Notes: generated by a model not told the origin, from the letters alone. A stretch of 64,000 bases of DNA from Candidatus Zhuqueibacterota bacterium (GCA_049322915.1 JBMOPW010000032.1:178496-242495), one strand, 5' to 3'. Positions 21,750 through 63,776 are shown, counted from the stretch's first letter. Translations and numbers: made by a program.

Positions 21750-21820
21750 TGGGGCGTCGCCAAGCGGCAAGGCACAGGGTTTTGGTCCCTGCATCGAAGG
21801 TTCGAATCCTTCCGCCCCAG
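21750..21820 (+). tRNA. tRNA-Gln (TTG)
   Basis: Acceptor TGGGGCG/CGCCCCA, anticodon arm CAGGG-TTTTGGT-CCCTG, T arm GAAGG-TTCGAAT-CCTTC; CCA not encoded. Confidence 0.96.
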
Positions 21821-61207: not shown

Positions 61208-62071
61208 TTATAGAAAGGAATAGGTGAATCCCAATGCAATGGCTTGTTTGATTTGACGCTTCTTGGAAATGTCTTTATCATAGAACATTTTCAAGTTGAA
61301 ATTGAATGCGATATACTTGGAGACTTTTGTGGACAGCACATTATCCCAGTTCACATCGATCTCATCCAGAGCGCCCAGCGTCGAGAAAAGTTCAAGTTTG
61401 GAAGTGAGCAGCGAAGTTGACGTCATCTTCCAATTCAGGTCAGTCACGGATTCCGCGCCGACTTCATTTTTTGTTTTTTCGATTTCGACCGTCTCTGCAT
61501 CATCGGCGTAAGGGACGGGGTAATCGCTGGTAACAGTCTGTTTCAACGCGACGCCGAGACGGGTCTGAATCAAGTCACCGGGTTTGTAACCAATGCCAGC
61601 GCTTTCCCTGAAATAGGCGGGATCCATGAGCGCTGAGATTTGAGTCTTCGTGTCTTCGGCATAGGCGTAGCCGGCGGCGAATTGTGTTTCGCCAGTGGCC
61701 GCGACAAATGGATTGAGCAGTTTGCCTAACTTGTAGGTGTACACGCTTTCAAGCTTGATTTCGTCGATGGATTTCCGCGACTCCTGATCCCCGATTTTGG
61801 TCGCGCCGTAGGTGAATTTTCCCGAGTTGGCCCAGTTGGTCTTTTCCTGTTCATTGACGAATTTGAAATTCAGATTCAATTGCCAGGCAAATGAATTTTC
61901 ACCGCCTTGCGCCCAGTTATCGAAACTGGTCTGGGTCAGATTGATGCCTCCGACCATGTTTTTTTGCCAGCCATATTTCGGCGCCTCGGCCGGTTTGTCC
62001 TGGCTGATAAGAGTGGACGCTGTCATCAGCGGAAGCAGGAAGCTGAGTGAGACGATAGTCAATACTTTCAT
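61208..62071 (-). CDS. DUF3078-like outer membrane protein
   Basis: Signal peptide; NLTQTSFDNWAQGGE, TQFAAGY, C-terminal LGFTYSF. Confidence 0.8.
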   Translation of the reverse strand: MKVLTIVSLSFLLPLMTASTLISQDKPAEAPKYGWQKNMVGGINLTQTSFDNWAQGGENSFAWQLNLNFKFVNEQEKTNWANSGKFTYGATKIGDQESRKSIDEIKLESVYTYKLGKLLNPFVAATGETQFAAGYAYAEDTKTQISALMDPAYFRESAGIGYKPGDLIQTRLGVALKQTVTSDYPVPYADDAETVEIEKTKNEVGAESVTDLNWKMTSTSLLTSKLELFSTLGALDEIDVNWDNVLSTKVSKYIAFNFNLKMFYDKDISKKRQIKQAIALGFTYSFL

Positions 62072-62199
62072 AAAGTGATCCTTTCCAATCGAATGAAAAA
62101 ATAGTAAATAATGAAGCCATCTCATTGAAACTGGATAGGGCGACGGCTTTATTCAGAAATAATTATTGTCCAGATTCTTCTCGGTTAGATCAGTGATTG

Positions 62200-62616
62200 T
62201 TATTTCAAACTAACGCCACAGTGGGCGCAGCGCGTCGCTTTAATGGGAATGACCGAGAGACATTCCGGGCATTCTTTTGTCGTTGGCTCGACCGGAGCAA
62301 GTTCCTCTTTTTTCTTCAGTTGGTTCATCCCGCGGATGAGCAGGAAAATGGCAAACGCGACGATGATAAAATCTATAATGGTATTGATGAAAATGCCATA
62401 GCTGATGGTGACAGCGGGCGTTTCTCCAACGGCTTGTTTAAGTGTAAGAGCGAATCGGCTGAAATCTGCTTTGCCTAACAGTAAACCAATCGGTGGCATG
62501 ATAATGTCTTTCACCAGTGAACTTACGATTTTACCGAATGAGGCGCCAATGATAATGCCAACAGCCATATCAACGACATTGCCGCGCATTGCAAATGCTT
62601 TGAATTCTTTAAACAT
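62200..62616 (-). CDS. mscL: Large-conductance mechanosensitive channel with C-terminal CxxC...CxxC
   Basis: [31 protein letters not shown]...RCAHC. Confidence 0.95.
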
Positions 62617-62730
62617 AAATCCTCCCAAAATGTTTTAAACGGGTTAGTTAAATTTACACATATGCTTTATTAGAACGAATTAAAACGAGATTGAAAAAGA
62701 GATTTGTTGGAATAGTTATTTTATAGTGCA

Positions 62731-62762: not shown

Positions 62763-62776
62763 ATTATATTTCAAAG

Positions 62777-63624
62777 GTCGGGTAGGTCGGGGGCATTGCT
62801 GCCCCTTTCCCCCCTAAGAACCGTACGTGACAGTTTCCCGTCATACGGCTCAAGCCTCTGAAAAGTATCCCTTGTGGGGATACCCACGAATTAATAATAA
62901 TTTGTTTCACGTTACATTCTGATATTCAGAATAGCCATAAGGTATGTAGAGTGCACCATCCCGACTCGTCGGGACGTCATTTGCTTTCTCTACTTTCATC
63001 TGATTACACCAGTATTCACGAGACCAGAGACCTGCTGAACGTCTGCCTCTTTACAGAGTCCCGATTCATCGGGATATCCCGACCATTACAGCCGGACATT
63101 CGCTTCTTTCAGCATCCTATTCCAATCCACCATCAGCTTGCCTTACGGTTAGCCTGCCCATCATAACAGGGCGATGGAATTGGGTTTCCACGTTCCGTAT
63201 AATTGACCCCAATGAGTAACTTAGGTGGATTCTCTACGCCGGCGATACGACAGTTCCGTATAGGTAGTTAGAAGACCTATAACCTGATCGCCTGTGTAAA
63301 CACAAGGAAACACAGCTTATACCTATTTCTGGTTTTAGCCAGAATTTAATCTCCGTAAGTATGATGCACCATTGACGACGCTTACAGACTTTCAATTGAT
63401 TTCACCATATTACTCAGACCTTAGCCCTTAACCGGAGGAGATTTCCGGATGGGTTTTCATCTCACGATGTCCGACCGTTTCGGTGCATTGTCCGGTGAGC
63501 TTCACACCCCGTCATCAGCGCAACGGTAGCATGTCACCGTAAGGTACTGATAGGAACATATCAGGTTTGTCTAAAGAACAATATCTCTTTAACAAACATT
63601 CAATTATACAGCCTCGTGTCGCAC
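62777..63624 (-). mobile_element. ORF-less group II intron (IIB/CL-like), 848 nt
   Basis: 5' GTGCGACACG; domain V GAGCCGTATGACGGGAAACTGTCACGTACGGTTC with AGC triad; domain VI ending ...CTACCCGAC; no RT ORF. Confidence 0.9.
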
Positions 63625-63749
63625 CATAACGCTGGTTTAACCTGTAAAACCGCTACACTAAAACTAATGCAACGCACAAGGTTTTTAATTTCATCAGTAA
63701 GCTTAATTTGAATCAAGGCGGTTTTGTCAGGTTGAAACTGATATTATCC
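63625..63749 (-). other. Integron attC-like recombination site interrupted by the intron
   Basis: Minus strand R'' GGATAAT (degenerate); arms TTTCAACCTGACAAAACCGC / GCGGTTTTACAGGTTAAA with two extrahelical bases; R' GTTATG|C restored by removing the intron. Confidence 0.7.
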
Positions 63750-63776
63750 CAGCATATTGTAAATAGATAAATTAAC

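Follow-up and report, generated by a model that had tools for sequence, protein, structure and literature searches.

In a window of 64,000 nucleotides from a Candidatus Zhuqueibacterota bacterium (GCA_049322915.1 JBMOPW010000032.1:178496-242495; the term refers to the entire stretch of DNA that was analysed, counted from its first letter), we have identified a group II intron that interrupts the R' core of an attC site, the recombination site of integron gene cassettes. The intron is devoid of an open reading frame (ORF) and is very probably a member of a IIB1-type (CL1) lineage that reverse splices into the top strand of attC sites at the position GTTRRR^Y. This assignment draws on a six-base loop in domain I whose sequence covaries with the end of the 5' exon, on independent insertions of the intron at attC sites of the same genome and on the preference of its relatives for the same core.

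Results

The intron and its insertion site

The intron encompasses 848 nt on the minus strand, from 63624 to 62777, with ends read from the sequence. It is recognised by two Rfam models, of which Intron_gpII (RF00029), describing domains V and VI (D5/D6), aligns over its full length (positions 1-77) to 62853..62777 on the minus strand with 67.8 bits at a gathering threshold of 40, and group-II-D1D4-7 (RF02012) to 63565..63424 on the same strand with 80.2 bits at a threshold of 34. The sequence starts with GUGCGAC at 63624 (GUGCG, 63624-63620) and ends with CCCGAC at 62777 (GAC, 62779-62777), and both termini conform to the group II consensus of 5' GUGYG and 3' AY (PMC7923331; here and below, papers cited by such accessions are drawn on in part). 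No ORF of at least 100 aa is found on the intron strand within the 848 nt. The flanking exons end with GTTATG (63630-63625) on the 5' side and begin with C (62776) on the 3' side, as in the split of R' into GTTATG|C proposed in a first-pass annotation of this DNA. The same annotation had assigned the span 62777-63749 to the intron, which is indeed located there, although the span also contains about 125 nt of the upstream attC site. It was likewise correct in describing the intron as sense to the attC top strand, and left unstated that both lie on the minus strand.

The features of the intron and its target, where copy A is the intron in the window and copies B and C are two further copies in the genome, are as follows.

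62777..63624, minus: ORF-less group II intron (Rfam, boundaries, copies B and C)
63189..63624, minus: domain I, with an approximate 3' limit (RNAalifold consensus; limit converted by hand from alignment columns)
62777..62853, minus: domains V and VI, a 34-nt D5 starting with GAGC followed by D6 (RF00029 alignment)
63259..63281, minus: hairpin of exon-binding site 1 (EBS1), stem UAUAGGU/ACCUAUA, loop CUUCUAACU (invariant between copies A and C; stem covaries)
63267..63272, minus: EBS1, UCUAAC, pairing with the exon end GUUAUG (covariation in 42 metagenomic copies)
63282..63283, minus: candidate coordination loop or EBS3, GU in the 5' strand of the internal loop below the EBS1 hairpin (consensus fold)
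63625..63630, minus: intron-binding site 1 (IBS1), the first six R' core bases GTTATG (sequence; paralogue homology ends after GTT)
62776..62776, minus: candidate IBS3, the seventh core base C and first base of the 3' exon (sequence)
63625..63752, minus: attC site, whose top strand is the minus strand (DNA fold, alignment with nine other sites)
63749-63743 (R''-like), 63733-63717 (L''), 63653-63639 (L') and 63638-63631 (spacer), minus: elements of the attC site of copy A

Pairing of EBS1 with the attC core

The loop that the first-pass annotation had named EBS1 is displayed by a hairpin, TATAGGT-CTTCTAACT-ACCTATA at 63259-63281 of the plus strand, equivalent to intron positions 344-366, with UCUAAC at 63272-63267. 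Its sequence is unchanged between copies A and C, and among relatives the stem covaries and the loop is conserved. In a consensus fold calculated with RNAalifold from four relatives, which covers domain I and part of domain II, 47 of 159 pairs show changes on both sides that preserve the pair, and the closing helix of domain I is formed by alignment columns 7-25 and 464-481. The hairpin is located in subdomain ID of this fold, above a small internal loop with GU opposite CGGAA, which is the place expected for the coordination loop of a IIB intron. Both this position and the covariation of the six bases with the exon end assign EBS1 to the named hairpin and not to another part of the fold. In the window copy, UCUAAC and GUUAUG form four Watson-Crick pairs and one G-U pair with a mismatch at position -2, in agreement with the five of six pairs originally counted.

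The relation between loop and exon was analysed in metagenomic relatives, which were retrieved by a scan anchored on a conserved stretch of 24 nt beside the hairpin and hence blind to loop and exon. The scan returned 80 loci, 56 of them with a 5' end and 46 unique, of which 42 were counted by comparing the loop at a fixed register with the last six exon bases. Besides L074, which is considered below, the dropped rows were L091, where the aligner had mis-called the 5' end and where inspection by eye gives GTTATG with the loop CCUAAC (5/6), L081, with an insertion in the hairpin, and L117, with a boundary off by one. The metagenomic set overlaps with the set of genome copies, since at least L131 repeats the genome copy L034. 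All six positions pair in 23 of the 42 copies, five in 17 and four in 2. The resulting mean of 5.5 pairs was not reached in any of 2000 permutations of exons among introns, which gave 4.28 ± 0.13. At position -1, where 35 of the 42 copies are paired, the pairs comprise G-C (15), A-U (9), C-G (6), G-U (4) and U-G (1).

Individual cases illustrate the same relationship. Perfect matches are found in the phylum genomes for L043 (loop UAUAAC, exon GTTATA) and L044 (loop CCUAAC, exon GTTAGG), and a Desulfatiglandales record combines the loop CCUAAC with the exon GTTGGG. A changed loop is accompanied by a perfect exon match in L066, and in two retargeted members the match extends to exons unrelated to the core (L102, exon TCTTGA and loop TCAAGA; L124, exon GATGAT and loop GTCGTC). 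In a sublineage starting with UUGCGAC (L075, L142), insertion occurs one base earlier in the core and the loop is shifted to match. As judged from this covariation, the loop UCUAAC is the EBS1 of the intron and pairs with the attC core.

Class of the intron and the protein of its relatives

A D5 of 34 nt, as opposed to one of 32 nt, separates classes IIA and IIB from class IIC, and the Rfam alignment gives a length of 34 nt for the intron in the window. As this copy is itself ORF-less, its class assignment relies on D5, on the fold and on the alignment of a protein encoded by a relative. This relative, L034 (G012, 2323 nt), harbours an ORF in domain IV for a protein with RVT_N, RVT_1 and GIIM domains and without an endonuclease domain. 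Its closest solved relative is the reverse transcriptase of Th.e.I3/T.el4h (PDB 6me0, chain C; E 2.4e-145 over 432 residues), compared to E-values of 5.3e-36 for LtrA and 3.8e-31 for a IIC reverse transcriptase, and Th.e.I3 has been classified as IIB1 with a CL1 reverse transcriptase (PMC8643678). The placement of EBS1 in the terminal loop of ID above the coordination loop and the long D5 are both features of IIB1 introns. By these comparisons the intron family is IIB1/CL1-like and not of class C, which is consistent with the IIB/CL type suggested in the first annotation.

The attC site and its counterparts in the genome

The 128 nt upstream of the intron fold into an imperfect attC-like hairpin, and the 5' flanks of the genome's copies each form a long imperfect hairpin. 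Ten aligned sites share the layout R''(xxATAAC)-spacer-L''...L'-spacer-C-GTTRRR. At the site of copy A (site A), the R' sequence GTTATGC agrees with GTTRRRY in six of seven bases, with the T at position 5 as deviation. Uninterrupted paralogues exist for site A (C14:538295-538422, 87% identical) and for the site of copy C (a second copy on C36, 100% identical over 117 nt). Both agree with the interrupted sites up to the core G and diverge from TT on, at the integron crossover point G|TT. The intron is thus inserted 5 nt past G|TT, towards the cassette, with six of the seven core bases kept joined to the L' arm. Upstream and downstream ORFs share the strand of the introns and are cassette-like, including a protein of unknown family, a methyltransferase and a DUF4160/DUF2442 pair. 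The latter, located between attC-like sites on C36 (L036 1752-2336, minus), is a typical small cassette pair of the toxin-antitoxin type. Exon ends, uninterrupted paralogue and the strands of neighbouring ORFs concur in placing the insertion in the R' core of the top strand in cassette orientation, as had been claimed at the outset.

A covariance model (R1) built from the ten sites, site A among them, assigns 118.6 bits to site A as a member of its training set. In the genome it detects 15 attC sites on nine contigs with recognisable R''/R' boxes, 10 of which are outside the training set, and its hits are scattered singly or in twos or threes. In five copies that were not used for training, the end of attC given by the model coincides with the intron boundary or deviates from it by one base at most. 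The attC sites of this genome are best regarded as solo sites or as clusters without an integrase; an integron integrase scoring above the curated cut-off is found in 8 of the 21 genomes of the order.

Further intron copies in this genome

The assembly of the genome, with 45 contigs and a completeness of 96%, contains three full copies of the intron and one 5' fragment of 60 nt. Copy B (C19) is 100% identical to copy A over 848 nt, and copy C (C36) is 92% identical by BLAST, with a mean column identity of 95% when aligned. The 5' exons of A, B and C end with GTTATG, GTTAGG and GTTATA, respectively, and a C follows on the 3' side of all three introns. A comparison of the insertion sites of genomic copies, which the first annotation had proposed as a check, places all three full copies in attC-like sites at cores of the GTTA type. 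Since the flanks of A and B are unlike on both sides and the five bases preceding the intron differ (TTATG and TTAGG), the two copies originate from separate insertions and not from one duplicated segment. Their perfect identity argues for recent mobility, perhaps driven by a sibling intron that has been lost or is missing from the assembly, and the copy in the window may be stranded without a protein of its own.

The 60-nt fragment (C19:94699-94758; locus L004 1501-1560, minus) is 83% identical, starts with CUGCGAC after GTTATGA and lacks the remainder of the intron. The genome also encodes two proteins with group II maturase signatures, neither of which is similar enough to be a cognate maturase. 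One is encoded by a 988-aa ORF that includes a reverse-transcriptase region (GIIM, 28 bits; C34:430784-431722, minus), the other by a 161-aa ORF (GIIM, 42 bits; C36:218581-218730) about 11 kb from copy C. An outward promoter like that of IIC-attC introns was looked for and none was found, with 4 promoter-like sites compared to an expectation of 5.0 ± 2.5.

Target sites and distribution of relatives

Relatives of the intron occur in 7 of the 21 genomes of the order and in 22 of the 167 genomes of the phylum, in records of Desulfatiglandales, Desulfobacteraceae and an Olavius symbiont, and at the 80 metagenome loci, and they constitute a widespread and barely described lineage. Among 24 genome-derived copies, the 5' exon ends with GTTA[GT]N in 15, where chance would provide 1 in 512 per site, with ATTATA in 2 and with a core shifted by one base in 4, and 3 are located elsewhere. 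The 42 metagenomic copies show a similar distribution, with GTT at positions -6 to -4 in 34, one base later in 4, ATTATA in 1 and a non-core sequence in 3, and the GTT core thus hosts 38 of these unique copies.

The flanks were also inspected with a generic structure test, in which a flank counts when it is closed by AAC...GTT, has spacers of 3-8 nt and forms a stem of 15 bp or more; the test is conservative and gives a lower bound. Such a structure is present in 16 of 46 metagenomic and 10 of 25 genome flanks, compared to 1.3% of 1000 control GTTA[GT]N sites. The test replaced a version requiring complementarity between R'' and R', which was too strict; a test relying on energy only, where 13 of 46 flanks were at or below the 5% quantile of controls, discriminated poorly and was rejected.

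Several relatives are rearranged. In L023 (G002:C174, about 1609-1697, minus), the 5' end AUGCGAC abuts the 3' end of another intron (D5/D6, 48 bits), so that two introns share one insertion site, either in tandem or nested. Two copies are internally deleted and have lost most of domain I including EBS1, namely L014 (G010:C54), which matches the query at 1-223 and then 509-727, and L016 (G002:C126), which matches it at 2-121 and then 517-708.

Interactions beyond EBS1

In canonical IIB1 introns, target recognition involves a 5-bp EBS2-IBS2 interaction and an additional EBS2a-IBS2a interaction with the exon at about -9 to -14 (PMC8643678). Neither is found in the intron family. Duplexes between exon positions -20 to -7 and domain I, calculated with RNAduplex, are no better than those of shuffled sequences in eight of eight copies, with 0.365-0.93 of the shuffles at or below the observed energy. 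The loop at the canonical place of EBS2 is nearly invariant (ACGRGGAUUAA) despite unrelated exons, including those of L102 and L124. By these comparisons, the family departs from canonical IIB1 target recognition. A wobble-rich match of GGAUUA in the invariant loop to the motif UGAKYU in L' was considered and rejected, as neither side varies and the loop persists in retargeted members that lack the motif. On the 3' side, the exon begins with C in 8 of 10 copies where this end could be read, which fits the G in the internal loop.

The pairing with EBS1 does not by itself account for the choice of sites. The genome contains 10,641 occurrences of GTTA[GT]N and 1,801 of GTTA[GT][AGC]C, compared to 15 hits of the attC model. 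As a six-base match would be available about 10,600 times and three of three copies nevertheless reside at attC, a determinant beyond base pairing is needed. The proposal of the first-pass annotation that the intron homes to integron cores by base pairing is therefore supported with respect to the pairing, since EBS1 covaries with the exon, and has to be amended in that pairing alone cannot confer attC specificity. The additional determinant could be the attC stem-loop or its single-stranded state, contacts with the intron protein or selection against insertions elsewhere, and the first two of these would be the likeliest.

Discussion

A putative mechanism of insertion

The described properties suggest a mechanism in which the intron would insert by reverse splicing into the cassette-sense strand, between the sixth and the seventh base of the R' core. 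The reverse transcriptase/maturase of the family, which lacks an endonuclease domain, would be supplied in trans for mobility and for efficient splicing. The insertion would leave a recombination site that can still fold and be used, and the intron would become the first part of the downstream cassette. Since 5 nt separate the intron from G|TT and it lies towards the cassette, this site probably stays usable and the intron would travel with the downstream cassette. Its sense orientation with respect to the cassettes also implies that it would be co-transcribed and could be spliced out.

We tentatively take this one step further and consider a second, independent origin of attC specificity, a scenario that we regard as possible though clearly less certain than the class and target of the intron. 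A IIB1/CL1 lineage that has abandoned EBS2 pairing would here read a folded or single-stranded top strand together with the R' core by means of a 6-bp EBS1, and would insert one base inside the cassette boundary so that recombination by IntI could still proceed. It could then ride along with each excision and integration of the downstream cassette, and copies at attC sites and at stray GTTRRR sites could recombine and thereby join new genes to attC. The gene that follows the intron in the window is an ordinary mscL.

Evidence against the proposed targeting and alternative explanations

A number of observations weigh against targeting of attC by an active intron. The window copy itself carries a mismatch at -2 between EBS1 and IBS1. 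Its attC site has a degenerate R'' (GGATAAT instead of RYYYAAC), owing to which it fails the generic structure test with a low score of 9 bp. A long stem of the attC type is found in only part of the flanks of relatives, and the evidence for an attC site does not extend to each copy. On the metagenomic flanks, R1 gives just 8 hits in 7 of 46 loci at E-values up to 1, because the model is too closely tied to the long attC family of the phylum. Three of the 24 genome copies (L025, L015, L023) are located away from the core, and L074 combines the loop UCAAGA with a non-matching exon GTTAGC and an irregular 5' end (GUGAACA), and may have arisen by recombination of two copies. Covariation between EBS3 and IBS3 could not be demonstrated in the three metagenomic loci whose 3' end falls within the 700-nt flank. 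A bias with respect to replication is not evident either, since all three copies of the genome are on the minus strand and the GC skew of their contigs is inconsistent (C32 +0.09, C19 -0.03, C36 about +0.03); the idea that the top strand is targeted as lagging-strand template was dropped for this reason. Two steps of the mechanism that we infer, the recognition of a stem-loop or single-stranded state of attC, as is the case for class IIC introns, and the hitch-hiking with the downstream cassette, also have to be counted on this side. In the assembly of this genome, the best tblastn match to the intron protein of the family is only 31% identical and is located in the 988-aa ORF, and the best match to the integron integrase (TIGR02249) reaches 79 bits at a cut-off of 265. 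In light of these two absences, present-day mobility or splicing in this genome is unsupported. No contig joining 62776 to 63625, as expected for a spliced or empty junction, was found in the sequencing runs examined; the RNA runs among them contained only pieces that are 90-95% alike and thus belong to relatives, and these have no bearing on splicing or expression.

Part of this evidence would equally be expected if the copies of this genome were immobile, unspliced relics without current function, which interrupt read-through between the upstream cassette region and mscL. We consider this a serious but doubtful possibility. It would account for the missing cognate reverse transcriptase/maturase in a 96% complete assembly, for the mismatch at -2 and for the lack of a spliced junction in the examined runs, and it is in line with the usual need of ORF-less bacterial introns for a related protein encoded by their host genome (PMC4424553). 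Against it, a recent insertion is indicated by the full identity of the 848 nt of copies A and B despite their unrelated sites, and the ribozyme core and the pairs of domain I are conserved with compensatory changes. Moreover, the assembly breaks exactly at these repeats, and an ORF-bearing copy may thus be unassembled. A passive association with attC, in which one insertion was spread by the duplication and shuffling of cassettes instead of homing, draws on the location of the intron on the cassette side of the crossover, where it would be carried along with the cassette. This explanation is largely refuted and appears very improbable, since the identical copies A and B differ in their flanks and in the five core bases, since attC sites are very diverse and EBS1 nonetheless covaries with the exon end in 42 unique copies, and since retargeted members (L102, L124) exist.

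The first-pass annotation had further suggested that the intron silences or modulates attC recombination, as it splits the R' heptamer. This looks unlikely, since only the seventh and least conserved base of the core is displaced, whereas G|TT and six of the seven bases remain joined to the L' arm. Finally, the attC target and the absence of a detectable EBS2 pairing are both reminiscent of a classic class IIC-attC intron. That identity is refuted by the 34-nt D5, by the similarity of the family protein to IIB1/CL1 (E 2.4e-145) compared to IIC (3.8e-31), and by an insertion into the top strand at R' in sense orientation instead of the bottom strand at R'' (TTGT/T) in antisense orientation.

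Relation to known introns

The described IIC-attC introns use R'' (TTGT/T) of the bottom strand as insertion site and are thereby in antisense orientation to the cassettes (PMC3001079, PMC7923331), and the first annotation had portrayed them in agreement with both sources. These introns, such as S.ma.I2, resemble the family investigated here in their specificity for attC, the absence of EBS2 pairing, an endonuclease-less protein and their occurrence also in clusters without integrase. They are distinguished by a class C ribozyme and protein and by recognition of a stem-loop together with an EBS1 of 3-4 bp, whereas the intron in the window inserts into the top strand at R', in sense orientation and with an EBS1 of 6 bp. 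A single class IIC intron with a top-strand, cassette-sense insertion in attC is cited in PMC7923331 and was reported as an isolated oddity. In a review from 2015, attC targeting is described as a trait of class C alone, and ORF-less bacterial introns are described as rare and, in nearly all cases, as co-occurring with a related copy that encodes the protein (PMC4424553).

The only precedent that we found is UHB.I2 (Sonbol and Siam 2021, Mob DNA 12:8; PMC7923331), a IIB1/CL1 intron located just after attC in cassette orientation with a UUGCG start. Compared by eye, its 5' end, UUGCGAC, is like that of the sublineage of L034, L012 and L050, and the loop homologous to EBS1 reads UAGAAC. In contrast to the family described here, it is known as a single ORF-bearing copy on one metagenome contig. 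In the portions of that paper drawn on here, its authors state that there is no conserved motif in the flanking exons and do not link EBS1 to the attC core, and the intron was thus reported without a mechanism connecting the two. A IIB lineage with an EBS1 matched to the attC core is not described in the full-text literature searched, which excluded subscription journals. The closest parallel to numerous ORF-less copies is provided by Thermosynechococcus elongatus, whose ORF-less IIB1 introns rely in trans on the proteins of sibling introns for both splicing and mobility (PMC8643678). These introns differ in their use of EBS2 and EBS2a, and no insertion in attC is reported for them in the parts of the source considered.

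What would be new, compared to these systems, is a well-populated group of attC-homing group II introns that stems from a different class, uses the other strand and follows a different recognition rule. If true, this would constitute a second solution to the targeting of attC, on the opposite strand, at the other core box and with a full-length EBS1, in a class whose members otherwise home into double-stranded sites by means of EBS2. The family would thus offer a natural test for the shares of base pairing and DNA structure in the target choice of group II introns, and it points to a IIB1 scaffold that could be programmed without recourse to EBS2. It would also introduce a sense-oriented, co-transcribed passenger into the cassette arrays of environmental bacteria, which may move with the cassettes, and it illustrates that ORF-less bacterial introns can be numerous where surveys for reverse-transcriptase ORFs would miss them.

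Neighbouring genes

The first gene downstream of the intron shares its strand.

62200..62628, minus: mscL (Pfam MscL, E 2.9e-43)

A comparison with the same-genus genome G007 provided no comparable orthologous empty site, as synteny ends at a gene for a DUF3078 protein. When window positions 61208-62628 are compared to G007:C45 (L150), this gene is syntenic, and upstream of it a gene for an MscS-type channel takes the place of mscL, which may therefore be part of a variable region. Elsewhere in the window, a tRNA gene is located at 21750-21820 on the plus strand (59.1 bits).

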